From an uncultured virus (IMG/VR IMGVR_UViG_3300000116_000008) (Duplodnaviria > Heunggongvirae > Uroviricota > Caudoviricetes): DNA of 64,000 bases. The DNA is taken from IMG/VR virus record IMGVR_UViG_3300000116_000008. One strand, given 5' to 3'. Under the pieces are notes generated by a model. The model searched no databases. It was given only the letters and a program-made list of their open reading frames with translations, and was not told the DNA's origin. Shown here one piece after another: positions 3,386 through 34,563 of the stretch. Numbering within the stretch: position 1 is the stretch's first letter; every line of letters starts with the position of its first letter. The position numbers and the translations under genes are program-made.

Positions 3386-4756
3386 TTATCGTTTTTCACT
3401 TAGATACTCTTTTAATGTTCCGCCTTCAATTGGTTTATCAAGATAGTCTTTTCCTAAAATCCAAATATCAGAATTTTTACTATTTATTTGATCTAGCCAT
3501 ACATTATAGCAATCTTTTACACCCTGTAAACCTCTTACATATTGGGCATTAACTGTATGAAACGCATTACTCCACCATATGACACTATCAGGATCATTAG
3601 TTATTTTATTTGTTACTTTTTCGGGGTTCTCACAAATGTCTACATGAACATATGAGTGTTTCAATTGCTTATATCTTTCCCAATGATCTTTTATTACTTT
3701 CTCTGAACCCCAATACCCTATTTCTCTTTGCCACAAGTCATCTCTAGTTAATCGCTCAGTTTCTACACCACCTGTTTCACTGAATTGATACTTTGCTAGT
3801 GCCCACTTAATAAAACTAGGATAATCCTCACCATCCCAATACGTGAGTAGTAACTTTTTAAACGCTAAAGAAGGCTTACTATAATCGTAATAAACTATTT
3901 CAGTATCATCATAAAAACCAAAATGATGTAGTATCATGTTTGGTTTAAAACTTGCAGCAACACTGTATAGTTTTTTAATAGGCTTTTCAAGCTTAACATA
4001 CTTTAAATCAAGATAGTTTTCTGTATTCCAAAGAAAAACACATGTAGGAGCATACTCAACTATGTTCTGTATCCAATTTAGCTGTAAAGCTAATTCTTCC
4101 GCACTTTGTGACGGATAAATATATTGTTTTGATTCTCTTATCTTTGGGTGAAAATTGTACACAGTTAAATCGTTTTCTAAACTAACATTAATAAAATTCC
4201 AACCATCTACTAATGGTGTACAAACTGTAAGTTCCTCAGTAGGTCTCAAAGATAAAGGAGTATAATCGTCATGTATGTCTTTAGAATGTCTGTTAGCTTT
4301 TACCACGTTTTCTTCTTTAGTAGCTGATTTATTACCAAACACAGGTTTATCAAATTTTCTATAATAATCTAAATTAACTAACATACATTGTTTATGAAGT
4401 CCGTAGTATCCTATTTCGCCTTTGGGGTTATTCTTATTAGGTTTATTTTTATCCATAATATGCCCTGTGACAAAAAAGTTCTGCTTTTCTATCCATTTTT
4501 CAATATGCCTAAAGAACGCAGCTTCTTGAATTATATGACCTGTAGCTTGTACTATACAATACTTTACGTCATGCTCTAGTGCTTTATCTAAAACTTCGTT
4601 AACAGAGTTTGCAGTTATAATTGGTCCAAAGTATTTAAACCTAGTAAAAAATTCTGTTAATTCTTTATATTTTTGAGTGTTAGGAATATGCGTAGAAAAA
4701 GTTGTATCATTATAGATACCTACCACATAATCTTTATTTAACCCCATTTTTCTCAT
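3386..4756 (-). CDS. Hypothetical protein (456 aa), possibly GT-A-like
   Basis: Long coupled ORF between two oxygenases; family not recognised. Confidence 0.5.
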   Translation of the reverse strand: MRKMGLNKDYVVGIYNDTTFSTHIPNTQKYKELTEFFTRFKYFGPIITANSVNEVLDKALEHDVKYCIVQATGHIIQEAAFFRHIEKWIEKQNFFVTGHIMDKNKPNKNNPKGEIGYYGLHKQCMLVNLDYYRKFDKPVFGNKSATKEENVVKANRHSKDIHDDYTPLSLRPTEELTVCTPLVDGWNFINVSLENDLTVYNFHPKIRESKQYIYPSQSAEELALQLNWIQNIVEYAPTCVFLWNTENYLDLKYVKLEKPIKKLYSVAASFKPNMILHHFGFYDDTEIVYYDYSKPSLAFKKLLLTYWDGEDYPSFIKWALAKYQFSETGGVETERLTRDDLWQREIGYWGSEKVIKDHWERYKQLKHSYVHVDICENPEKVTNKITNDPDSVIWWSNAFHTVNAQYVRGLQGVKDCYNVWLDQINSKNSDIWILGKDYLDKPIEGGTLKEYLSEKR

Positions 4757-5369
4757 AGCTACGTATTACCAATTCTTCATATTCTTTTGCTCTTGTTCCG
4801 TGCACAATTATGTGATATCTTTCTTCTGTGCTTTTATTAATGTAAGCGTGAGTATTTCCTACATCTAATAGTAGTGCTTTTCCTGGCGCAAATGGGACAT
4901 AACCTTTATGACCTTCCATTTTCATTTTACACCCTTTTGGGTGATTTAGTGCCATATTTATTGGAGATAATTTAGAGTCAAAACTGTCTTGATGCGGAGT
5001 GATAAATCCCTCTGGCTCTAATAACATAAATCTAACTCGGTAATAAGACTTAAAAGGAAAAATATCACGAAAAAATTTATATGTGACAGGACATCTATCG
5101 ACTATGTCTGTCCACACATAAGGAGTTTCTTGGTTTGACTTATACCCGTATTGTTCAAAATGATTAGTTTTTTCAGCATCGATACCATGAATGCATAAAC
5201 TTCTCCAACCTTTATGTCTATAACCGCCCTGACCGTCTTGATCTCTGTGTTTAACAAATCTATCTCTTAAATTAATTGCTTCTTTATGCATTTCTTCATA
5301 AGGAAACTCTATGTCCAAGTCTAACCAAGGTATATTGCTCTCATTTATAATCCAATTAAAATCTTTCAT
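4734..5369 (-). CDS. 2OG-Fe(II) oxygenase, Asp/Asn beta-hydroxylase-like
   Basis: RVRFMLLEPEGFITPHQD...HAYIN...RYHIIVH. Confidence 0.8.
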   Translation of the reverse strand: MKDFNWIINESNIPWLDLDIEFPYEEMHKEAINLRDRFVKHRDQDGQGGYRHKGWRSLCIHGIDAEKTNHFEQYGYKSNQETPYVWTDIVDRCPVTYKFFRDIFPFKSYYRVRFMLLEPEGFITPHQDSFDSKLSPINMALNHPKGCKMKMEGHKGYVPFAPGKALLLDVGNTHAYINKSTEERYHIIVHGTRAKEYEELVIRSYEKNGVK

Positions 5370-9066: not shown

Positions 9067-9793
9067 TTTTGATTACTCTGTCCAGCGTTTTGTAAAATTT
9101 TGAATTTGCCCATTTCGTATGGAGTCTTTTCATGTTCCTTGTTTCCATGAGAAGTTTGTTTTCATCCTTTAATCGTTTATTATCTCTTGATTCGTGGTGA
9201 TATAGTCTAACTGGGATATTATAAATTATTTGATCCTGTTCTCTTGCTTGTAAACAATAATCAACATCTCTATTATATGTCCACTCGTAGCTTGCATCAA
9301 AATCGCCAACGCTATCAATAAACGACCTTCTCAAATAACAACCACCAAAGGTAGTCCACGCTACTTCTCTAACATTATTGTATTGACCGGTATCTGTTTC
9401 TAGTTCCTTAAATTTAGATTCATTCTCCAAAACAAGCCCACTACCAAAATGATCTGGTCTATTATTGGTAAATTTTCCTCCAGCACATTGTACATAGTAC
9501 TGGTCTTTATCATTTTTAGCGGGATAAAGTAAAAGACACCCAAACATGCCTGCTTCTGGATGTTTTTGAACGTACTCTAATACTTCATCAAACCATCCGT
9601 CATGATGAGGGCTCATATCTGCATGAAGTATAAATATATCATCATTAGGAAACTGTTTCCACATTTTTTGAAACATCAAATCTGAGCCTATACCTGCAGT
9701 ATCTTGTTCATAATGCGCATCTAAATACCAAAACATATCTTTATGATCAATTATTTCTTGTTCATAAACATAGGGTACAATTACTTTAGCCAT
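9059..9793 (-). CDS. Glycosyltransferase family 2
   Basis: ILHAD, GGCYLRR...DVDYCLQARE...HHES. Confidence 0.8.
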   Translation of the reverse strand: MAKVIVPYVYEQEIIDHKDMFWYLDAHYEQDTAGIGSDLMFQKMWKQFPNDDIFILHADMSPHHDGWFDEVLEYVQKHPEAGMFGCLLLYPAKNDKDQYYVQCAGGKFTNNRPDHFGSGLVLENESKFKELETDTGQYNNVREVAWTTFGGCYLRRSFIDSVGDFDASYEWTYNRDVDYCLQAREQDQIIYNIPVRLYHHESRDNKRLKDENKLLMETRNMKRLHTKWANSKFYKTLDRVIKNG

Positions 9794-9965: not shown

Positions 9966-10966
9966 ATTAGTCTATCTGTCCAAGTTTTAGGGGTTTTATC
10001 TGTAATCAGTTCTAAAGGTAAATGATATTCAAATTCTTTAACTTGTGGTCTTATCCATGCAACCATTTCTTTTAATGTTTGATCTACTGATATTGTAGCA
10101 TTGTAATTCCACTCATCTCTCACTTTTTGGCTTGAACAAAAAGCATTTTTTACTTCTGCTGGTCTATCGGGAAAATGTTGAAGATTAGGATATACTTCAC
10201 AAAAGTGCCCAACTTTATAAGCTAACTCTTTAATTGATATTTCATTATCATCAGGACCAATGTTATACACTTGGCCACAAAGATCTGTTCGTGAACTCTC
10301 CATCATTCTATAAATTGCTTTTATACAATCTAAAACATTAGAAAATGATCTTTTTTGATCTCCCTCGCCATATACAATGATTGGTTTATGTTGCAAACAT
10401 CTATTTATCATTATTCCAACAACATTTCTGAAAGGATCAAAATATCTTTGACCGACCCCTACAACATTATGAGGAACTACTGTTAAGTAGTTTAAACCAT
10501 GTAGCTTACTTAATATCTGTAAATGTTGTTCTGCATTTACTTTTGCTAACCCATAAGGATCTACAGGTGCTGGTTGCATATTTTCTGTAAAAGGAGGTGT
10601 TTGTGCCCCATATCTAGCCATAGAGCTACAATTAATAAATAGTCTAATCTTATTGTGAATTGCTGCTGTTGCAGCTGCAATCGTACCTGATACAATACTT
10701 GTAGCAGTAACCATTGGAGAAAAAACACTTAATCCTTCATACGGAAGTGCTGCTGTGTGAAATACTACTTCACAACCCTTCATTGACTCTTTCAATAGCT
10801 CTATGTCTAATATATCGCCTTTTATATACGTTGCAAGTTCAGGTACGTTACCCTCAACACCACCAATCATGTTATCTATACCAACAACTTCATTGCCTTG
10901 ATTAATAAGGAATCTAGCCATAGTGCTACCTAGTAGCCCACTAATTCCTGTGATAAATATTTTCAT
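9962..10966 (-). CDS. NAD-dependent nucleotide-sugar epimerase/dehydratase
   Basis: GISGLLG Rossmann motif, YGLAK. Confidence 0.9.
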   Translation of the reverse strand: MKIFITGISGLLGSTMARFLINQGNEVVGIDNMIGGVEGNVPELATYIKGDILDIELLKESMKGCEVVFHTAALPYEGLSVFSPMVTATSIVSGTIAAATAAIHNKIRLFINCSSMARYGAQTPPFTENMQPAPVDPYGLAKVNAEQHLQILSKLHGLNYLTVVPHNVVGVGQRYFDPFRNVVGIMINRCLQHKPIIVYGEGDQKRSFSNVLDCIKAIYRMMESSRTDLCGQVYNIGPDDNEISIKELAYKVGHFCEVYPNLQHFPDRPAEVKNAFCSSQKVRDEWNYNATISVDQTLKEMVAWIRPQVKEFEYHLPLELITDKTPKTWTDRLI

Positions 10967-12594: not shown

Positions 12595-13965
12595 TTACAT
12601 TAAATTGATTTGATAAAAGGCATAAAACGCCTCTAATATTTTGTCTTGTAGCATAAAAGCGATCATTAAGACTAATGGTTCAGTTTTTCGCAGTAAATAT
12701 CCTAGCGGTGTTAAAACTAACATCACTGTAAGATGATACCACATATCATAATCAAGTGACCCAGTGTATAGCACGAGCCCGATTAGTAATATTCCTGTCC
12801 CGATTAACATGTAATTCATATTAACCTTTTGTAGGATGTTAATGTACTTTACTGCAGGCCAGCATAGTATTAACCCTATTGCATTAACTATAACAAACCA
12901 AGCACACAGATGCAAGAACAAATTTGTTTTGATTGTTGTCGTGTAATTGATGATATAGGTATTTATTTCTATAATTGCCAGTAGGAGTGTTTCACTACCA
13001 GAAATCGGAATTCCTATTAGTAGTAAAGGCATTAAACCAGTCATGTTAGTTGCATTGTTTGATGTCTCAGCTGATACTAATGACTTGATATCTCCTTCCT
13101 CAGAATATGTACCTCTTTTTCTCCCTAAATACCTTTCAAGGGCATAGCTAAGATTAGTTCCGACAGCTGTTCCAACATGAGGCACTAAGCCAATAAAAGC
13201 TCCTATAATACTACCTCTAATAGATGATGTTATATTACCAAAATATTCTTTTATATGTAACCAGACAGGAGTTTTATCTTCATAAACTCTATCAGTTTTA
13301 AAGTTTTTAAATTGATCTTTTACCTGTAATAACACAGGAAATACATACAAACTTACCATTACAGGAAATAAAGGTAAACCAGTTATCAACTCAGGAAATC
13401 TTTCATACGGAAGGTAATCTTCAGCAAAAATAGTAGGAGGAACACTTAATTGCCCTATACATGATAGTAAAAATCCTAACGCAAATATAAACGCATTCTG
13501 TATCTTACTATGTCCAAGAAGAAATACGACACTAAAAGATGCAATTAGTAATATTACTGATTGAATATTGTTATTATAAAATTTAGTGATCAGTTCGACT
13601 GCTGAAGGTAATGCTAATAAAACCATACCTAAAGCAATAAAAGCACCAACTACACTTCCTATTGCCGCATTTGAGATAGCTATATTTCCTAGTCCACGAG
13701 AAAACATTCGTTTGCCCTCTCTTACTGCAGGAAGACTACTAGCTTCTCCAGGGACTCCAAATACCGTAGCAACTACACTACCGCTAAACTGTGATACTGA
13801 AGTTAGTGCCATATAAAATAATAATAGTTGTAATAACGTTGAATCTAGTAAAAATGGATAAACTAAAAACAAAGTGACTAAGTTACCTATTCCAGGAATA
13901 AACCCTGAAAAATAACCACAAGTTATACCAGCTAAAACATGAGCTGTGTCGCCTAAATCAATCAT
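12595..13965 (-). CDS. tctA: Tripartite tricarboxylate transporter permease TctA family (second copy)
   Basis: FGVPGEASSL..VREG, SAETSNNA, LLLIGIP. Confidence 0.88.
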   Translation of the reverse strand: MIDLGDTAHVLAGITCGYFSGFIPGIGNLVTLFLVYPFLLDSTLLQLLLFYMALTSVSQFSGSVVATVFGVPGEASSLPAVREGKRMFSRGLGNIAISNAAIGSVVGAFIALGMVLLALPSAVELITKFYNNNIQSVILLIASFSVVFLLGHSKIQNAFIFALGFLLSCIGQLSVPPTIFAEDYLPYERFPELITGLPLFPVMVSLYVFPVLLQVKDQFKNFKTDRVYEDKTPVWLHIKEYFGNITSSIRGSIIGAFIGLVPHVGTAVGTNLSYALERYLGRKRGTYSEEGDIKSLVSAETSNNATNMTGLMPLLLIGIPISGSETLLLAIIEINTYIINYTTTIKTNLFLHLCAWFVIVNAIGLILCWPAVKYINILQKVNMNYMLIGTGILLIGLVLYTGSLDYDMWYHLTVMLVLTPLGYLLRKTEPLVLMIAFMLQDKILEAFYAFYQINLM

Positions 13966-18956: not shown

Positions 18957-19188
18957 CTTTTATTGTGCCATCTTCGTATGCGGCATCCCATAAATTTCTA
19001 TTAAGTCTTACTCTCTTATCATTAACATCTACGTAATCTGTTTCTAGTTCTTTTTTTACTTCTTCAACTCTATGTTGCAGCCAACTGATAGATGTATGTA
19101 TATGACCGGTATCATGAGGTTGTAACCTACTTTTTGCTACTGCAATTTCATCCATTAACATTATAAGTTTATCGGTATTTTTTATCAT
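18949..19188 (-). CDS. Conserved phage hypothetical protein
   Basis: LQPHDTGHIHTSISWL; coupled ORF. Confidence 0.6.
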   Translation of the reverse strand: MIKNTDKLIMLMDEIAVAKSRLQPHDTGHIHTSISWLQHRVEEVKKELETDYVDVNDKRVRLNRNLWDAAYEDGTIKGV

Positions 19189-20213
19189 TTTTCTTCTCCA
19201 AAAATTGTGTTGTGTGTGTTATTAACTCTTATAAAAGTGGCACACTTTGATAAAGATTTTAGCCTCTTTGCACCTACGTAAGTACAGGCAGATCTAATAC
19301 CACTTAGTATATCTATTAAGGTATTATTAACAGCACCTTTATAGGGTACTTCAACTGTTTTACCTTCTACCCCTCTATAATCTTTAGTAGGAACATTGTG
19401 TCTGCTCATTGCAGATTCAGAAGACATTCCATAAAATCTCATTTTCCCTTCAACAATTTCGCCATCACACTCATCATGCCCAGCTAAAATTCCTCCGATC
19501 ATTACGAAATCAGCTCCTGCAGCAAATGCCTTTACAATATCTCCTGAGTTATTACACCCTCCATCCGCAATAATATGAGCATTAAGCCCGTGTGCTGCAT
19601 CTGCGCATTCCATTACTGCACTTAGTTGGGGATATCCTACTCCAGTTTTTATTCTTGTAGTACAAACAGAGCCAGGTCCTACACCGACTTTTATAATATC
19701 AGCTCCTGCTAAAATTAATTCTTGTGCTATGTCCGCGGTCACAACATTACCAGCAACAATAATTGCATCTGGCAATCTCATTCGCATATCTTTGATTGCT
19801 TCAATTACAGAAATAGTATAACCGTTAGCAACATCAATTCCAACCATATCCCACTTTAAGTGATTTGTTACCATATGTCCTACATCATCAATACCACCCA
19901 TCATACATACATTTTTACCTAGCATCTTATTATTAGTTGTACCGATTCTCCACCAAGTAGCATCTTTCTTCATAAAATGCCTTGCCGGACACGTAATCAT
20001 ACCGTGTTCTAACATTTTTTTATGCATTTCAGGCGTACCTACAGTATCCATATTAGATGCCATAATAGGAACTCCAGTCCATTCCATTTTACTATGTTTA
20101 AATTTAAATGTTCGGGTAATATCAACATCATAACGGGATGTTAGTGTTGATCGCTTAGGTCTCAGAAGAACATCTGAATAATCTAACTTAATATCGTCTT
20201 CGATTCTCATCAT
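19185..20213 (-). CDS. guaC: GMP reductase
   Basis: [54 protein letters not shown]. Confidence 0.95.
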
Positions 20214-20545: not shown

Positions 20546-20563
20546 TATCCTTACAAGGAATAA

Positions 20564-20738
20564 GGGGAGAGATTCTGTTTCCGCGCTCTCTCCAGGCGCA
20601 TAGAAATTAAGCGGCTAGCGCTAACTCCTGAGGTGCAAAATTATCGTTTGCGTTTATTAAAATCTTGCGGTTAAGGTCGCTTGCGCACCTGCTTCTAAGT
20701 ATAGGTGTTTACTCATCTGTCGATCCTATTTCACCCCC
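20564..20738 (-). ncRNA. ssrA: tmRNA coding piece of a two-piece permuted tmRNA; tag ANDNFAPQELALAA at 20651-20607
   Basis: 5' GGGGGTGAAATAGGATCGAC; tag frame GCA AAC GAT AAT...GCC GCT TAA; downstream pseudoknot GGAGAGA/TCTCTCC. Confidence 0.95.
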
Positions 20739-20744
20739 AATGGG

Positions 20745-20954
20745 TTATGCTGCGAGCCAAGTATTTACTTCAAAAACTTCAATAAGCATAAAGCTAAAAA
20801 GTAATAAGAGTATACTATATACAATTAATTTACCACTGAAGTTGTGTGCCGCCATTTTAATTGCTATAAGTTCATTGCCTAAAAATCTTAGTGCTAGCTC
20901 AAACTCATTATGCTCATCTTTAATGACTACGCCGTTTTTCTTTTCTTCGCTCAT
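20745..20954 (-). CDS. 69-aa membrane protein encoded inside the tmRNA intervening segment
   Basis: Purine-rich AAGAGAG before ATG, one C-terminal TM helix, ends WLAA; fills the 232-nt spacer. Confidence 0.7.
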   Translation of the reverse strand: MSEEKKNGVVIKDEHNEFELALRFLGNELIAIKMAAHNFSGKLIVYSILLLLFSFMLIEVFEVNTWLAA

Positions 20955-20970
20955 AATTTTCTCTCTTTTT

Positions 20971-21021
20971 TGGTGGAGGTGTCGGGTACCGCCCCCGAGT
21001 CCAGTCTGCCTACTCTACTTA
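20971..21021 (-). ncRNA. ssrA: tmRNA acceptor piece (5' boundary approximate)
   Basis: GGACTCGGGGGCGGTACCCGACACCTCCACCA; CACCTCC pairs with GGGGGTG to give G3:U70; TAAGTA..TAGG pairs with CCTATACTTA of the coding piece. Confidence 0.93.
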
Positions 21022-21267
21022 TACCTCAAACAAAGCACTGTCTATATTAAGTTCTTTGAGTTCTTCTTTAGTATTGTAATTAAAGATTCTAAAACTATCT
21101 GCTTCAAGATCCCATACTAATTCCATACCCTCTGGGTATTTGCTTTCAGAACCTGCACCTTGAACGTGCTTTTTTAAAAACGGTTCTGGTAAATCCCAAA
21201 TTCTTGCGAAAACCATTTCTCGATTTTCTCCGTTCTTTTTCTTAAAAGTTCCTTTGTATGCTTTCAT
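21019..21267 (-). CDS. WYL_2/SH3 (Sm-like) beta-barrel protein
   Basis: FKKKNGENREM...VWDLEADSFRIFN pattern. Confidence 0.65.
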   Translation of the reverse strand: MKAYKGTFKKKNGENREMVFARIWDLPEPFLKKHVQGAGSESKYPEGMELVWDLEADSFRIFNYNTKEELKELNIDSALFEV

Positions 21268-25944: not shown

Positions 25945-25997
25945 TTGACATTGACTTAGCTTTTTGTTATTCTATTTGAAATGTGAAAAGCTAAGTC
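25945..25997 (+). promoter_or_regulatory. Sigma70 promoter of the synthetase-tRNA unit, bracketed by a 12-bp inverted repeat
   Basis: TTGACA-17-TATTCT; GACTTAGCTTTT (25953-25964) and AAAAGCTAAGTC (25986-25997). Confidence 0.65.
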
Positions 25998-26891: not shown

Positions 26892-26990
26892 TCTGGGATG
26901 GTGAAACGGTAGACACGCACGATTGTTTCTCGTGTGATAGATGACGGCAAATTATTTATCGTGGAGGTTCGAATCCTTCTCCCAGAGCCA
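26892..26990 (+). tRNA. Non-canonical tRNA-Asn (GTT) with a long variable arm
   Basis: Acceptor TCTGGGA/TCCCAGA, G73, CCA; D arm GTG..GGTAGA..CAC; anticodon stem CACGA/TCGTG, loop TTGTTTC; 28-nt variable region; T arm GGAGG-TTCGAAT-CCTTC. Confidence 0.88.
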
Positions 26991-27621
26991 ACATAATTAA
27001 ATCACTTAATTTTTGATGACTTTTAGCACCTGCATGAGAGTTATCAGGTGCAAAATCTTTATGTTTTTCTAAGTCTAAATGAAACTTAATGTAATCTTCA
27101 GTTAATTCTTCTAATTGTGGCTGTAAATGAGGAAAACAACAGTGATGAATAGTTTTTATTCCTTTTGTACTTATTATTTGTTTTGCTACTGCTCCGCTCC
27201 ACATTCTTTTTACTACCTCTTCTTCAGAAAAATATAGCATTCCTGCAGCGTGCCAAGCTGCTCTATGCTCTTTTGTATTCTTACGTTTATTATCCAATAT
27301 TTGTTCCGATAATGTCCAATTTCTATAATATTTTTCATTCTGTAGCACATGATTTGCTACTATAAATCCCTGCCACTGATTATTTCTAAAATCCCACACT
27401 TGCCACCGATATTCATTCGTGTGACCGATAAGTATTAAATCAGGTTTTAACTTGACAGCTTCTTCAACTTGTGCTGTAATAAGATATTCAGAAGCGCCAC
27501 TTTGAGCTAGGTTCTTTAAATCAGCTTTAAACTTATTTTGTACTAAATAGGGGTAACACTGCTTTTGATCAGAGAGTCCTTCTCCCTGAGTAAAACTATC
27601 GCCACAGGAAACTATTAACAT
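26956..27621 (-). CDS. SGNH/GDSL hydrolase-like protein
   Basis: CGDSFTQG, NLAQSGAS, DNSH. Confidence 0.8.
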   Translation of the reverse strand: MLIVSCGDSFTQGEGLSDQKQCYPYLVQNKFKADLKNLAQSGASEYLITAQVEEAVKLKPDLILIGHTNEYRWQVWDFRNNQWQGFIVANHVLQNEKYYRNWTLSEQILDNKRKNTKEHRAAWHAAGMLYFSEEEVVKRMWSGAVAKQIISTKGIKTIHHCCFPHLQPQLEELTEDYIKFHLDLEKHKDFAPDNSHAGAKSHQKLSDLIMLALGEGFEPPR

Positions 27622-28246
27622 GAGCGAAGAAATATTTGTAGTTGGAAATTCATGGTCTATACCTTGTGATGAAGCACCCGTACCTGCTTATAATATACTC
27701 GGTTTAAAAAACCGATGGGAAATTCCTGGAATTACTTTAGATGCACAAGCAGAATACATTATTGATAACAATCTTGTCAACAGATTTAAAGTAATTTGGC
27801 TAATTGGCCACCATCACAGAGTTGACCCAACAGGTGCTGGCCGTTATTTACTACCCTATCCTTTAGGACCTAATGATCCATACGGTAAGTTAGTAAGAGA
27901 TTTGTGGTTTAAGAAGCTGACTAAAATGCCTTGGTATAATAGAATTAATGCTTTGTTTATTAAAGCGGTATTGGGTGATGCTACTAGAGATAATTTAATG
28001 CTCATACCTATTTATAGACCTCATACTTTAGAGCATATCTGGTTTACAGGACATCCTTGTATTTGGGATTTCAATTTGAGAGATTTTGCTAAAAAAGATG
28101 GAAACTTAGGTCCTCAAGGACATATGAATCAACAGGGTCATATTAAGTTTGCACCTATATTAGCATCGGAGATATACGATAGATGGAAGATTACATTAAA
28201 GATGGCTGGTCCGACGCAGTTGAAATCGGATTTAATGAGACGATAG
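27620..28246 (+). CDS. SGNH-like protein
   Basis: VVGNSWS N-terminal motif and GHMNQQGH C-terminal motif. Confidence 0.6.
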   Translation: MSEEIFVVGNSWSIPCDEAPVPAYNILGLKNRWEIPGITLDAQAEYIIDNNLVNRFKVIWLIGHHHRVDPTGAGRYLLPYPLGPNDPYGKLVRDLWFKKLTKMPWYNRINALFIKAVLGDATRDNLMLIPIYRPHTLEHIWFTGHPCIWDFNLRDFAKKDGNLGPQGHMNQQGHIKFAPILASEIYDRWKITLKMAGPTQLKSDLMRR

Positions 28247-28758
28247 CTAGACGAGCAAGTGATATAGTAAAATATTGCGAAAAAAATTATATAAATCACG
28301 GGCATCAATGGAGATGTGATTTTGCAGGTAAAGTTGCCATTCTTTTAAAACCTGGAGAAGGTTATGAATGGCACTTTGATAATTTAGACTTTGCGGAACG
28401 TCGATTAACAACTTCTCGTCCTGGGCGCTTTTGGTCACATCTAGTTTACTTAACTGAGGGTAAGCCTTTTGAGATTGGATCTTGGAACCCTAAAGGAAAT
28501 CGAGTTGAGCAAACCGATTTTTCTGCGCCTGAACCAGAAGAGATTTTAGTTAGAATATATCCTAAACCTGGAAAAACACTATTATTTCCTTGCTTTATGG
28601 TTCATCGTATACAACCTATTGTAGATAATCGTAGATGGGCATTTGTTGATTTTGTTGATGAACCTAATTATTCTACTAAAACGAAAAAAGATTTAACTAA
28701 TATATTTAATAGGTACTTTGATGAAGATACTAGGAGTAAGCTGCTATCATCACGATAG
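28183..28758 (+). CDS. 2OG-Fe(II) oxygenase
   Basis: YEWHFD...LVYL...PKPGKTLLFP..MVHRIQPI..RR. Confidence 0.82.
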   Translation: MEDYIKDGWSDAVEIGFNETIARRASDIVKYCEKNYINHGHQWRCDFAGKVAILLKPGEGYEWHFDNLDFAERRLTTSRPGRFWSHLVYLTEGKPFEIGSWNPKGNRVEQTDFSAPEPEEILVRIYPKPGKTLLFPCFMVHRIQPIVDNRRWAFVDFVDEPNYSTKTKKDLTNIFNRYFDEDTRSKLLSSR

Positions 28759-30079
28759 TGCAGCTGCATCATTAAAAAATAAATTTATACAAGGAGCCGC
28801 TCACGAAGAGAGGTTTACTCGTAAAAAATACGATAACTCTTTTCCAAATAATACAATTAGATGGTTACAAAATTGTTATGAGGACTGGGAGATAGCTGCT
28901 TTCTATGAAGAAAGTACCTATAAACAGTTTAAAACTGATATTAAAAAAATCACTAAAGCAGAACCTGTTTTAGTTGATCATCATAGTGCTCATGCTATGA
29001 GTTCTATTCTTATGACTGACTGGGAAGACTGCGCTGTAATGGTGATAGATACTGTTGGTGGTAAATTTTCAACATCTTTAGGAGTATATGAAAATGGCAA
29101 AATTACGTGGATCAAAAGGTTCCGTTATCCCAATTCTCTTGGGCTTTTTTATTCAACTGCTACTCGTTTATTGGGTTTTAAACCACTCAGCGGTGAGTCT
29201 CAAGTTATGGCAGCAGCAGGATATGGTACTCCAAAATGGGCTAATTTTATAAAAGATAAATTTATAAATGTTCAAGAAGGTGATTACACTTTACTACATG
29301 ATCTTACTCGTGGCGTAGGTTCGGGTGTTTTAGATTGGGATATAGCTGCTTCAGTTCAGTCTGTTTTTACAGATGTTGTGGTTAACTTAGCTAATTGGCT
29401 ATATAAAGAAACTGGAAAGACTAATTTAGCTTACTCAGGCGGTTGCGCTCTTAACTGTGTTACTAATTCACACTTAATGCGTTACACTTTGTTTAATGAT
29501 ATAGCTATACAACCTGCAGCAGGAGATGCTGGTGCTTCTTTAGGCGCAGCTGCTCTTATTGAAAGACCTGTATGGGAAAATGCATTTTTAGGATATGAGG
29601 ACTATGAGCATCTACAGGCAGACGAAGCAGCAGATAAACTTATTAAAGGTGATATAATACCAATTATTCATGGTCGAGCTGAGTTTGGACCTAGAGCTTT
29701 GGGAAATAGAACCTTGCTATGTGCTCCTATAGATAGTACAATAGACAGATTAAATAAAATTAAAAATAGAGAGAACGATTCTTGGCGACCTTATGCACCT
29801 ATTATTCAAGACAAGGAAGCTAATGACTTTTTTAATATATACAAAGCTTGTCCACATATGTTATTTGTAGCTGGTATAAAAGAGAAATCTAATTTTAAGA
29901 CTCACGATAATACCGCTAGATTACAACATATTACAGGCTCTCAGGCTTATTTATATAAAATTTTAGAAATTACAAGACAATATGGTTATCCAATTCTTAT
30001 AAATACAAGTTTAAATGCAAAAGGTAAGCCTATAGTTAATAAGAAAGAAGACTTACATGAAATACAATTATCTGACTGA
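28718..30079 (+). CDS. Carbamoyltransferase (NodU/CmcH/TobZ family)
   Basis: HDSAAA, EERFTRKK, HH.AHA, GGCALNC, EFGPRALGNR, LINTSLN. Confidence 0.93.
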   Translation: MMKILGVSCYHHDSAAASLKNKFIQGAAHEERFTRKKYDNSFPNNTIRWLQNCYEDWEIAAFYEESTYKQFKTDIKKITKAEPVLVDHHSAHAMSSILMTDWEDCAVMVIDTVGGKFSTSLGVYENGKITWIKRFRYPNSLGLFYSTATRLLGFKPLSGESQVMAAAGYGTPKWANFIKDKFINVQEGDYTLLHDLTRGVGSGVLDWDIAASVQSVFTDVVVNLANWLYKETGKTNLAYSGGCALNCVTNSHLMRYTLFNDIAIQPAAGDAGASLGAAALIERPVWENAFLGYEDYEHLQADEAADKLIKGDIIPIIHGRAEFGPRALGNRTLLCAPIDSTIDRLNKIKNRENDSWRPYAPIIQDKEANDFFNIYKACPHMLFVAGIKEKSNFKTHDNTARLQHITGSQAYLYKILEITRQYGYPILINTSLNAKGKPIVNKKEDLHEIQLSD

Positions 30080-30731
30080 TGTTGAAACTGAAACTCTTAA
30101 GTCTGGCAGAACTTATTTTACCCCTGACGGTGCTTATCCTTCTATTACTACTATATTAGGAAAAACAGCTGATAATACCTGGCTCCAAAAATGGATAGAA
30201 CGGGTAGGAGAAGAAGAAGCCGCACGAGTGTCTAAAGAAGCTACAGATAGAGGAACATTAGTACATGAATTTGCAGAGAGACATTTTAATGGGGAATCTA
30301 TTACAGATGAACTAAAGGTTCAAACTTTAGATGTTAGACAAATGAGTCATGATTTAATTAAAATGACTGAATCAGGAGTAGAAGAGGTATGGGGACAAGA
30401 ACAAGTTCTTTGGAGTAATAAATACAAATACGCTGGTAGAACTGACATGGTAGGTATCTGGAAAGGTAAACCTACTATAATTGATTTTAAAACAAGTAAG
30501 AAGAAAAAATATGTTAAACAAATTACTGATTATTTTATTCAGTGCTGTGCTTACGCTGTTGCTCACAACGAGCTGTACGGTACAGGTATCAGAAACATGG
30601 CAGTGCTCATTACAGTCGATGGCGGAGAACCCCAAATCTTTGAACGTGACGCCGTGCCTTATCTTCCACTTTTAAAGAATAGGAGAATGACGTTTGACAA
30701 ACTGCAAGCAGCTAAAACTACCTCTTCTTGA
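30057..30731 (+). CDS. PD-(D/E)XK exonuclease (Cas4-like phage exonuclease)
   Basis: YPSITTIL, RGTLVH, YAGRTD..IIDFKTS..Q..AYA. Confidence 0.88.
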   Translation: MKYNYLTDVETETLKSGRTYFTPDGAYPSITTILGKTADNTWLQKWIERVGEEEAARVSKEATDRGTLVHEFAERHFNGESITDELKVQTLDVRQMSHDLIKMTESGVEEVWGQEQVLWSNKYKYAGRTDMVGIWKGKPTIIDFKTSKKKKYVKQITDYFIQCCAYAVAHNELYGTGIRNMAVLITVDGGEPQIFERDAVPYLPLLKNRRMTFDKLQAAKTTSS

Positions 30732-31206
30732 AGGTGTTAATATTCACAAATTAATACACTTTTTTAAATTAGGTAAGCATCTTTTTACTGATCGATATTC
30801 AGAGTCTCCTCATTGGAAATCTTTTGACTTAATTAGTAACACAGGCTACTCGCCTATGTTTAAACATTTTCCTGAAATAGTAAAATGGTCAGAAATGTTA
30901 CAAAAAAAGAAATTCATTTCAAAAATACTAACACTTTACATATCAGTATTAGCACCCCGACAACAGATACCTTGGCATGTTGATATGGATAAACTAGGAT
31001 TTAATAAAGCATTTATTACGGCTTTACACATTGATGATAGCTTTATCGAGTTTAAAGATGATAAAAAATATTTTTATAAAAAAGGCTATAGCTATGCATT
31101 ACAAACAGGAATTGAGCATAGAATTATAAATATGAGTGATGATTATAGAATTACACTGTGTACGTCCCCAACAAAGGAGTTAAATAATGATACAATGGTT
31201 GCATGA
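30694..31206 (+). CDS. 2OG-Fe(II) oxygenase, Asp/Asn beta-hydroxylase-like
   Basis: IPWHVD...EHRIINMSDDYRI. Confidence 0.72.
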   Translation: MTNCKQLKLPLLEGVNIHKLIHFFKLGKHLFTDRYSESPHWKSFDLISNTGYSPMFKHFPEIVKWSEMLQKKKFISKILTLYISVLAPRQQIPWHVDMDKLGFNKAFITALHIDDSFIEFKDDKKYFYKKGYSYALQTGIEHRIINMSDDYRITLCTSPTKELNNDTMVA

Positions 31207-33495: not shown

Positions 33496-34563
33496 ATGAA
33501 ACTACTAAAACTATTGATAGTTGCACTATCAGTTATGTTTTTCAGTGTTGCACATGCTGAAAATAAGACAAAAGTCGGATTTATTTATGTTGGCCCAACT
33601 GGCGACCATGGATGGACTTATAGACACGATATAGGAAGACAAGATGTTGAAAAGCATTTTGGAGACAAAGTTGAAACCACTTACATTGAAAGTGTAAAGT
33701 ATGGACCTGACGCAGAACGTGCAATCAGAGCTATGGCCAAAGGTGGAGCAGATATTATATTTGCAACAAGTTTTGGTTACATGGAGCCTATGCTTAAAGT
33801 AGCAAAAGAATTTCCAAATGTAAAATTTGAACATGCTACAGGTTATAAGCAATCAGATAACATGGCAAGTTATGGATTGAGATTATACCAAGCCAGACAC
33901 GTACAAGGTGTAATTGCAGGTATGATGACTAAGACTAACAAAATTTGTTACGTTGGTGCATTTCCAATTCCAGAAGTTATTCGTGAAATTAACACGTATT
34001 ACTTAGGTGCTAAGTCGGTTAATCCAGATGTTGATATTGATATCGTATGGGTTAATACATGGTACGATCCAGGTAAAGAAGCACAAGCCGCTAAGGTTAT
34101 GATTGCAGAAGGTTGTGATATGGTTGCTCAGCATACTGATTCACCTGCTCCATTGCAGACTGCAGAAAAAGCAGGCGTACTAGGTTTTGGTCAAGCATCA
34201 AACCAATATAAGTTTGCTCCTAAAGCTCAGTTGACTGCAACTATTGACAACTGGTCACCATACTATATTGAAAAAGTACAAGCAGTAATGGACGGCACTT
34301 GGAAGAGTGGTGATTACTTTGGGCACATGAAAGATGATGTTGTACAGATGGCACCATTTACTAATATGCCAGACGATGTAAAAGCATTTGCACAAAAGAT
34401 TAAAGATGGTATTACCAATGGAAAGTATTTTGCTTTTACTGGTCCTATCAAAGACAACACAGGTAAACTTCAGTTGAAAGACGGAGAGATTGCTAGTGAT
34501 GCACATCTTAATAGTATGATGTACTATGTTGAAGGTATTGACGCTAAAGTGCCTGGTAAATAA
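33496..34563 (+). CDS. BMP-family ABC substrate-binding protein (purine nucleoside-type)
   Basis: Signal peptide; KVGFIYVGP.GDHGW, IFATSFGYM, QHTDSP. Confidence 0.92.
   Translation: MKLLKLLIVALSVMFFSVAHAENKTKVGFIYVGPTGDHGWTYRHDIGRQDVEKHFGDKVETTYIESVKYGPDAERAIRAMAKGGADIIFATSFGYMEPMLKVAKEFPNVKFEHATGYKQSDNMASYGLRLYQARHVQGVIAGMMTKTNKICYVGAFPIPEVIREINTYYLGAKSVNPDVDIDIVWVNTWYDPGKEAQAAKVMIAEGCDMVAQHTDSPAPLQTAEKAGVLGFGQASNQYKFAPKAQLTATIDNWSPYYIEKVQAVMDGTWKSGDYFGHMKDDVVQMAPFTNMPDDVKAFAQKIKDGITNGKYFAFTGPIKDNTGKLQLKDGEIASDAHLNSMMYYVEGIDAKVPGK

Follow-up and report, generated by a model that had tools for sequence, protein, structure and literature searches.

A class-II-bodied tRNA(GUU) coupled to an AsnRS-like enzyme gene in marine cyanophages

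Introduction

Why would a marine phage carry an asparagine anticodon on a tRNA body of the kind seen in tRNA-Leu, directly behind a gene for a synthetase-like enzyme? The question is raised by a 99-nt gene in a 64,000-nucleotide stretch of DNA from an uncultured virus (IMG/VR record IMGVR_UViG_3300000116_000008; Duplodnaviria; Heunggongvirae; Uroviricota; Caudoviricetes), referred to here, at its full length, as the window. The window belongs to a T4-like cyanomyovirus, and the nearest named relatives of the region are the Prochlorococcus phages P-SSM2, P-SSM5 and P-SSM7. In bacteria and their viruses the class-II tRNA body is familiar from Leu, Ser, Tyr and Sec, and in tRNA-Asn position 37 is an A that serves as the site of N6-threonylcarbamoyladenosine (t6A) for ANN codons. 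An Asn tRNA on a class-II body whose position 37 is mostly a pyrimidine goes against both of these textbook rules. An earlier note on this DNA, made from the sequence alone, had described both features and had proposed that the tRNA decodes poorly and serves another purpose, that it resists anticodon nucleases, or that it is charged by a synthetase reading the variable arm and mistranslates Asn codons. Here we find that the tRNA is genuine and structurally selected, that its gene stands behind the gene of an enzyme resembling asparaginyl-tRNA synthetase (AsnRS), and that the tRNA may, on our tentatively preferred reading, be the dedicated partner of that enzyme.

Results and Discussion

A genuine, structurally selected tRNA

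The architecture claimed for positions 26892-26990 was recovered in full, comprising the GUU anticodon, U37, U1-A72, G73, an encoded CCA, a 3-bp D stem and a 9-bp variable arm (Table 1). The variable stem is formed by GAUAGAUGA/UUAUUUAUC, with nine pairs including two G-U. The Rfam tRNA model (RF00005) scored 45 bits against a gathering threshold of 29 (E = 2.3e-6 for the whole 64-kb window), its alignment assigning 25 extra bases to the variable region, and the minimum free energy fold of the single sequence gave the identical cloverleaf and long arm, with an energy z-score of only -1.5. Our family covariance model, R1, scored the window tRNA at 103.9 bits. ARAGORN agreed on the coordinates and labelled the gene tRNA-Glu(ctc), because the long variable arm misled its parsing; shorter-armed relatives are labelled tRNA-Asn(gtt) by the same program. 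The same tRNA is also present in the nearest record to the window (G001, 46 kb).

Selection on this structure was examined in 42 distinct homologs from the window, the P-SSM phages and IMG/VR, each anchored on the upstream enzyme gene and aligned with MAFFT. Stem pairing was intact in all 840 of 840 cells, and double, compensatory changes were found in 14 of the 20 stem pairs, including two of three in the D stem and all five in the anticodon stem. None of 500 shuffles matched any observed covariation measure, and sliding the pairing partners abolished the signal. A hairpin occupies the variable region of all 42 homologs, at lengths of 13-32 nt and with differing stem sequences. The earlier note had named a lack of compensatory changes as the mark of a pseudo-tRNA; since all stems are kept and compensatory changes are present, the window tRNA is a genuine, structurally selected tRNA. 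Furthermore, we saw no evidence for splicing of the extra segment, which falls within the variable region; in relatives this region ranges naturally from 12 to 39 nt. The selection is clear across hundreds of ocean phage contigs. In three members (L026, L033 and L039) the 5' strand of the T stem holds one extra base (GCAUGG vs CCUGC), a bulge that MAFFT placed in a column of its own.

Adding the sequences from a tRNA-first scan, described below, gave a pooled set of 89 distinct members. As the pattern used in that scan imposes YUGUU, anticodon conservation was judged from the 42 enzyme-anchored sequences alone; GUU is present in every one of these, despite covariation at every anticodon-stem pair, and no Leu, Ser or Tyr anticodon occurs among them. 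In the pooled set U1-A72 and G73 are both invariant (89/89), CCA is encoded in 87/89, and a 3-bp D stem with a D loop of 10-11 nt is found across the family. The variable arm shrinks to a minimum of 3 bp, a length found in at least 17 members, with the variable region spanning 12-39 nt. The class-II body with asparagine marks that had been read from one sequence is therefore real and conserved in its D stem, D loop, variable hairpin and acceptor marks, and the pyrimidine at position 37 likewise extends to 72 of the 89 members (U in 68, C in four, A in 17 and G in none). Positions 32 and 38 vary as well, with U32/C38 in some members, and positions 33-36 are kept.

Compared with bacterial, class I tRNA-Asn, the family shares GUU, U1-A72, G73, U33 and a canonical T loop, and departs from it in having a variable hairpin of 12-39 nt instead of a short loop, a D stem of 3 rather than 4 bp with its 10-11-nt loop, and U or C in place of A at position 37 in most members. 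With class-II tRNA-Leu it has in common the 3-bp D stem, the long, G18G19-containing D loop, and a variable hairpin that has a single unpaired base on its 5' side and two on its 3' side; it differs from tRNA-Leu in G73, the GUU anticodon and the first pair U1-A72. Allo-tRNAs, odd long-armed cloverleaves reportedly described by Mukai et al. in 2017, and tRNA-Sec likewise combine a long variable arm with an anticodon foreign to the class-II amino acids. Their acceptor and T stems follow an 8/4, 9/3 or 8/5 geometry, in contrast to the 7-bp acceptor and 5-bp T stem found here together with Asn-type acceptor marks and the tie to an adjoining enzyme gene.

Coupling of the tRNA to an enzyme gene

An enzyme-first search of IMG/VR returned at least 595 related stretches, the best 80 of which were analysed. 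In 73 of these 80 the tRNA begins 4-10 nt (rarely more) past the enzyme stop codon, the gap in the window being 7 nt, and model R1 added two loci (L061, and L055, truncated by the end of its contig). Excluding L052 and L082, which end at the gene, the tRNA is present in 75 of the 78 assessable loci among the best 80 of at least 595. The tRNA-first scan of IMG/VR, with a pattern drawn from the D arm and anticodon loop, gave at least 120 loci; 119 of the 120 listed belong to this tRNA family, and the remaining one (L285) is a different tRNA. Among the matches listed, the enzyme gene lies upstream in all 119 family loci: in 114 at a tblastn E <= 1e-5, in three at E = 1.4e-5, weaker because a small extra open reading frame (ORF) stands between enzyme and tRNA, and in two by the final residues of the enzyme, readable in the few bases available.

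The pair is found in differing surroundings. In P-SSM7 it lies between the major head gene, accompanied by three tRNAs, and gp3; in P-SSM2 and P-SSM5 it lies in a hypervariable region of sugar and lipid genes; and in the window its neighbours are small unknown ORFs on one side and a convergent GDSL-lipase-like ORF on the other. These differences in neighbourhood indicate that enzyme and tRNA move as a unit. In the collection searched, the three P-SSM phages are the only cultured isolates with the pair. The tRNA is almost certainly a co-transcript of the upstream enzyme gene. No promoter-like site was found between the two in a promoter scan, which over the region gave 7 promoter-like sites against 6.4 in shuffles, no excess; the match 5' of the enzyme gene (Table 1) is weak. 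Contigs in Logan from marine RNA libraries cover enzyme-gene relatives over small shares of the stretch, DNA carry-over being possible, and one such contig of a relative reads through that relative's tRNA, with the 5' half of the window tRNA uncovered. The joints listed in these contigs lie between divergent relatives.

With regard to the flanks of the tRNA itself, the final 35 nt and the stop codon of the convergent GDSL-lipase-like ORF overlap the T arm and the 3' strand of the acceptor. A 'lipase' gene also stands just 3' of the tRNA in P-SSM2 and P-SSM5, but is co-oriented there.

An AsnRS-like catalytic core

The partner gene encodes a class IIb synthetase core that matches PF00152 at 5.9e-16 over profile positions 28-299, which is the catalytic part only, so that an anticodon-binding domain is absent. 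Among NCBIfam models asnS ranks first, its 34.5 bits falling far below the cut-off of 342.6. A profile built from 38 family members found AsnRS first (2xti, 1.3e-13; 1x54, 1.2e-10), then AspRS, and more weakly archaeal asparagine synthetase A (3p8t, 1.7e-5, over part of the domain only) and LysRS/EpmA (EpmA at ~3e-5). An AlphaFold (AF2) model with a pLDDT of 95.3 matched AspRS, AsnRS and LysRS catalytic domains in Foldseek. The QTGQMWLE motif of the enzyme aligns to QSSQLYLE of AsnRS, the AspRS counterpart being QSPQLYKQ, at a position which we take to discriminate Asn from Asp. Class II motifs 2 and 3 are intact, and the catalytic motifs are identical in tRNA-linked and tRNA-less clades of the family, which comprises 683 representatives at 50% identity, most of them 270-300 aa long.

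Stand-alone class IIb cores of about 290 aa are also found in archaeal asparagine synthetase A (3p8t, 1nnh), AsnA and EpmA/PoxA; the profile of the present family is much closer to AsnRS than to asparagine synthetase A or EpmA. To our knowledge, no paralog of these types keeps a tRNA gene alongside. A nearer likeness in gene arrangement is ProRSx with tRNA-ProA in Streptomyces, reportedly a dedicated odd synthetase/tRNA gene pair (Vargas-Rodriguez et al. are said to have described it in 2021), in which an anomalous tRNA gene also lies beside a divergent synthetase-type gene. Here, in contrast, the anticodon-binding domain of the enzyme has been lost, and the links of the cellular relatives are to pyrimidine synthesis rather than translation.

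Cellular relatives and pyrimidine synthesis

A scan of species-representative genomes with a single enzyme protein identified 76 loci encoding a relative. Six are on contigs of marine metagenome-assembled genomes (MAGs), carry the long-arm tRNA and encode enzymes of 63-80% identity; these contigs are probably phage DNA. One further locus (L167) has an ordinary 75-nt tRNA-Asn downstream of the relative. Outside the six phage-like contigs identity is 43-63%, and the tRNA-less loci come from Weeksellaceae, Chitinophagales, Chlamydiae, Dependentiae, Patescibacteria, DPANN archaea and others. Megaphage relatives of the enzyme (48% identity) likewise have neither a tRNA adjoining the gene nor a long-arm tRNA(GUU) elsewhere in their records.

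Both fusions and neighbours of these relatives point to the pyrimidine pathway. One protein (P0124) joins a dihydroorotate dehydrogenase (DHO_dh) to the enzyme domain, and another (P0139) joins the enzyme domain to orotidine 5'-monophosphate (OMP) decarboxylase. In a survey of the 123 nearest flanking ORFs of non-phage loci, PyrD was the direct neighbour in nine loci, PyrF (with or without a phosphoribosyltransferase domain, PyrE) in two, and an aspartate/ornithine carbamoyltransferase in one. A pathway census, counting matches over the family cut-off, then compared 24 genomes having the enzyme gene with 14 controls. PyrB (TIGR00670) was present in 1/24, PyrC in 1/24 by TIGR00857 and in 0/24 by TIGR00856, and PyrD (PF01180) in 17/24; all 14 controls had both PyrB and PyrD. 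The contrast between PyrB in one and PyrD in 17 of the 24 is clear, even though single absences prove little, as the census genomes are MAGs. Canonical AsnRS was also present in three of five enzyme-carrying genomes tested, and the family therefore does not substitute for AsnRS. Judging from gene content and fusions, the relatives in cells seem to take over the opening steps of pyrimidine synthesis (aspartate carbamoyltransferase and dihydroorotase). Our literature search turned up no paper that places an AsnRS-like enzyme in this pathway.

On the phage side, pyrE is over cut-off in P-SSM2 and P-SSM7. A tblastn search of 50,697 phage records with the PyrE of P-SSM2 gave no hits beyond the records of the three P-SSM phages, six marine single-virus fragments and one megaphage.

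Several further observations concern these gene neighbourhoods. Two large IMG/VR contigs, G009 (the record of L039; 175669-176274 and 179179-179553) and G010 (the record of L043; 53128-53493), contain short DHO_dh-like (38 bits) and phosphoribosyltransferase-like ORFs (24-28 bits, below the pyrE cut-off) at about 3-10 kb from the pair. Phosphoenolpyruvate (PEP) carboxykinase directly precedes the relative in 14 MAG loci (L103, L108-L110, L113, L116, L118-L121, L123 and L125-L127), all from MAGs labelled Weeksellaceae, Moheibacter, Flavobacteriales/Flavobacteriia/Flavobacteriaceae or Bacteroidetes, and in a Peribacteria locus (L101) the relative follows a GatA-like amidase.

A proposed dedicated partner of a metabolic enzyme

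The strict coupling of tRNA and enzyme gene, together with the tie of the enzyme family to genomes lacking PyrB and PyrC, where the enzyme would occupy the place immediately before PyrD, leads us to favour a reading in which the tRNA is the dedicated partner of an AsnRS-derived metabolic enzyme, acting as carrier or supplier of an Asx (Asp or Asn) substrate and not as a general decoder of AAY codons. We hold this tentatively, as the best single account of the gene associations and at somewhat short of an even chance. As the enzyme has no anticodon-binding domain, the invariance of GUU points to a host synthetase, and the anticodon would most likely be kept by loading through an anticodon-reading host enzyme (AspRS or AsnRS). 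The phage enzyme would then bind the acceptor end, as synthetase cores do, and use or release the attached Asp or Asn, in a reaction that could plausibly supply dihydroorotate, and through it orotate, to the phage PyrE. The drift at position 37, mostly to U, may reflect relaxed selection for decoding. The suggestion of poor decoding and another purpose made in the earlier note fits these data, namely the drift at 32, 37 and 38 beside fixed positions 34-36 and the constant location behind an AsnRS-like gene, about which that note had said nothing.

A more specific version of this proposal, which we regard as rather unlikely, is tRNA-dependent synthesis of a pyrimidine precursor, in which a host synthetase would load Asp or Asn and the phage enzyme, with ATP, would yield dihydroorotate or its direct precursor. 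Such a route would bypass carbamoyl-phosphate synthetase, aspartate carbamoyltransferase and dihydroorotase and feed the phage PyrE, and the odd body and U37 would exclude the tRNA from translation and reserve it for the enzyme. Should a tRNA-linked metabolic step of this kind prove real, abundant marine viruses would have a further, new means of rewiring the nucleotide supply of Prochlorococcus and related hosts.

Amino-acid carriers working off the ribosome have precedents in Asp-tRNA(Asn) with the amidotransferase GatCAB and in Glu-tRNA in tetrapyrrole synthesis. The putative carrier described here resembles them in that role and in keeping U1-A72, and differs in its private class-II design and its own enzyme gene. 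In the bacterial GatCAB system studied by Bailly et al. (PMC1635274), U1-A72 is the mark on tRNA-Asn read by the amidotransferase, and an extra D-loop nucleotide acts as an anti-determinant that blocks amidation.

A number of findings weigh against a dedicated, non-translational partner. By analogy with that anti-determinant, the long class-II D loop may block the host amidotransferase. Three phage enzyme loci (L050, L079 and L080) have no such tRNA, either at the locus or anywhere in their whole records, and 69 of the 76 loci from species-representative genomes have no tRNA adjoining by model R1. Given these tRNA-less cellular relatives, the 3/78 phage loci and the alike active sites, the special tRNA is not strictly needed. 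A comparison of tRNA-linked with tRNA-less clades showed no gained basic residues hinting at an RNA-binding surface. All translation-competent features of the tRNA are kept (T loop, G18G19, U33, CCA in most members and A37 in 17/89), and ribosomal use may thus remain compatible with them. The RNA-library contigs showed nothing decisive on transcription, mature ends or splicing. Also, we know of no chemical reason why tRNA-esterified Asx should aid the synthesis of dihydroorotate.

Alternative explanations

The alternative that survives best is a private synthetase/tRNA pair, possible although we consider it unlikely, in which a cut-down AsnRS reads the acceptor end and the long arm and supplies Asn-tRNA to phage protein synthesis, bypassing the host route. 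Such a pair would agree with AsnRS heading the profile matches, with the AsnRS-like QTGQMWLE and intact motifs 2 and 3, with the adjacency and co-occurrence of the two genes, and with the Asn marks and gene-encoded CCA of the tRNA. An enzyme without an anticodon-binding domain, however, cannot account for the invariant GUU, and relatives sharing these motifs have no partner tRNA, coexist with a canonical AsnRS in three of five genomes tested, form fusions with PyrD or PyrF, and turn up in genomes that miss PyrB and PyrC. The prevailing pyrimidine at position 37 would moreover be poor for reading AAY codons, for which t6A37 is established. Were it a working private pair, it would be of interest to genetic-code engineers.

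An ordinary phage tRNA-Asn for codon supply, charged by the host and standing beside an unrelated metabolic gene, appears improbable. Phage tRNA genes are common, L009 having Gly, Thr and Trp tRNAs nearby and P-SSM7 those for Ile, Arg and Leu, and the canonical T loop, encoded CCA and invariant anticodon would suit such a role. However, among the matches listed the tRNA is never apart from the enzyme gene although the pair changes neighbourhoods, and in P-SSM2 it is the sole R1 match. Unlike tRNA(GUU), the remaining tRNAs of P-SSM7 serve codons that end in A/U (AUA, AGA and UUA), and codon supply leaves the class-II body and U37 unexplained. The obligatory coupling to a synthetase-derived enzyme suggests an undescribed non-translational use of a tRNA.

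Phage tRNAs that evade tRNA-cutting defences are known, and the variation at loop positions 32, 37 and 38 beside constant positions 33-36 would suit a decoy or spare tRNA whose altered loop (U37, with U32/C38 in some members) escapes host anticodon nucleases aimed at tRNA-Asn. As this would explain neither the obligatory enzyme gene nor the class-II body, we judge it very improbable. Equally hard to credit is a tRNA-shaped 3' end of the enzyme mRNA, a processing or stabilising element and not an amino-acid carrier: the 7-nt gap with no promoter match within it would be expected, but the invariant anticodon, U1-A72 and G73, and encoded CCA would be unnecessary for RNase P processing or stability.

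Least likely of all is the mistranslating tRNA proposed in the earlier note, in which the long arm would recruit host SerRS or LeuRS and place Ser or Leu at Asn codons: the variable and D arms are Leu-like, R1 in two megaphages ranks tRNA-Leu genes (55-61 bits, the best non-family matches) above ordinary tRNA-Asn (44.6 bits), and G73 is the discriminator of bacterial tRNA-Ser, but charging by either enzyme is unsupported given G73 in every member where tRNA-Leu has, and LeuRS needs, A73, given an arm that falls to 3 bp, given U1-A72 and U11-A24 (acceptor and D-stem pairs), presumably not a tRNA-Ser pattern, and given invariant Asn-type acceptor marks that mistranslation would not require.

Prior annotation and other features of the window

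The tRNA gene itself is already in GenBank annotation. In each of P-SSM2, P-SSM5 and P-SSM7, ARAGORN places a tRNA-Asn(gtt) of 87-88 nt after a 'tRNA ligase' gene, and the GenBank records annotate tRNA-Asn, the feature coordinates in P-SSM2 being mismatched. In the portions consulted of two papers, the 'tRNA ligase' is merely tabulated for two genomes (Sullivan et al. 2010, PMC3037559) and the pair is unmentioned (Iyer et al. 2021, PMC7824862). Our literature search found no paper discussing the enzyme-tRNA pair or the build of the tRNA, and nothing on whether Prochlorococcus or Synechococcus hosts lack AsnRS or asparagine synthetase; these hosts may form Asn-tRNA by the indirect route. Although the gene annotations pre-exist, the combination of a class-II body, Asn identity and pyrimidine 37 in a tRNA tied to a synthetase-derived metabolic enzyme appears new relative to print.

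Table 1. Features of the tRNA(GUU), its partner gene and other loci in the 64,000-nucleotide window.
Feature	Position	Strand	Basis or detail
Class-II-bodied tRNA(GUU), 99 nt	26892..26990	+	Rfam, fold, covariation, family model R1
Acceptor stem UCUGGGA/UCCCAGA, 7 bp, U1-A72	26892-26898 with 26980-26986	+	Sequence
D arm GUG-AAACGGUAGA-CAC	26901..26916	+	3-bp stem, 10-nt loop with G18G19; class-II (Leu-like)
Anticodon arm	26918..26934	+	Stem CACGA/UCGUG (perfect 5 bp), loop UUGUUUC
Anticodon GUU (positions 34-36)	26925-26927	+	
U37	26928	+	
Variable region, 28 nt	26935..26962	+	U, 9-bp hairpin with 7-nt loop CGGCAAA, then G, U
T arm GGAGG-UUCGAAU-CCUUC	26963..26979	+	Canonical T loop
Discriminator G73	26987	+	
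Encoded CCA	26988-26990	+	
AsnRS-like class IIb synthetase catalytic core, 282 aa	26036..26884	+	PF00152, asnS, profile, AF2/Foldseek
Sigma-70-like promoter match TTGACA-17-TATTCT	25945..25973	+	~60 nt 5' of enzyme start codon; consensus match only
GDSL-lipase-like ORF	26956-27621	-	
ATE_C-like ORF, 248 aa	42202-42948	+	
Permuted (two-piece, alpha-type) tmRNA	20563-21075	-	Rfam
NodU/CmcH-type carbamoyltransferase	28718-30079	+	
2-oxoglutarate (2OG)-Fe(II) oxygenase	28183-28758	+	
Asp/Asn beta-hydroxylase-like ORF	4734-5369	-	
Asp/Asn beta-hydroxylase-like ORF	30694-31206	+	
IMPDH/GMP-reductase family protein	19185-20213	-	
PnrA-like nucleoside-binding lipoprotein	33496-34563	+	
TctA-family transporter subunit	12595-13965	-	

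One other gene of the window was considered as a user of the tRNA and rejected. The product of the ATE_C-like ORF matches the C-terminal domain of arginine-tRNA-protein transferase (ATE_C) at 3.1e-9, a fold that uses an aminoacyl-tRNA donor. No homolog turned up in any of the 50,697 phage records, those of P-SSM2, P-SSM5 and P-SSM7 among them, and the ORF is therefore no conserved partner of the tRNA.

The remaining loci listed in Table 1 are separate observations. The carbamoyltransferase and the oxygenase lie 1-2 kb downstream of the pair, and the window has two beta-hydroxylase-like ORFs. The tmRNA scores 100.5 bits with the Rfam model alpha_tmRNA and 99.9 bits with tmRNA_permuted, and is absent from the ARAGORN output. 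Unusually long tRNA-like genes were also seen in the megaphage LR756508 (L089), where two of 99 nt, at 9418-9518 and 10212-10311, are labelled tRNA-Pro(tgg) and tRNA-Leu(aag) by ARAGORN.

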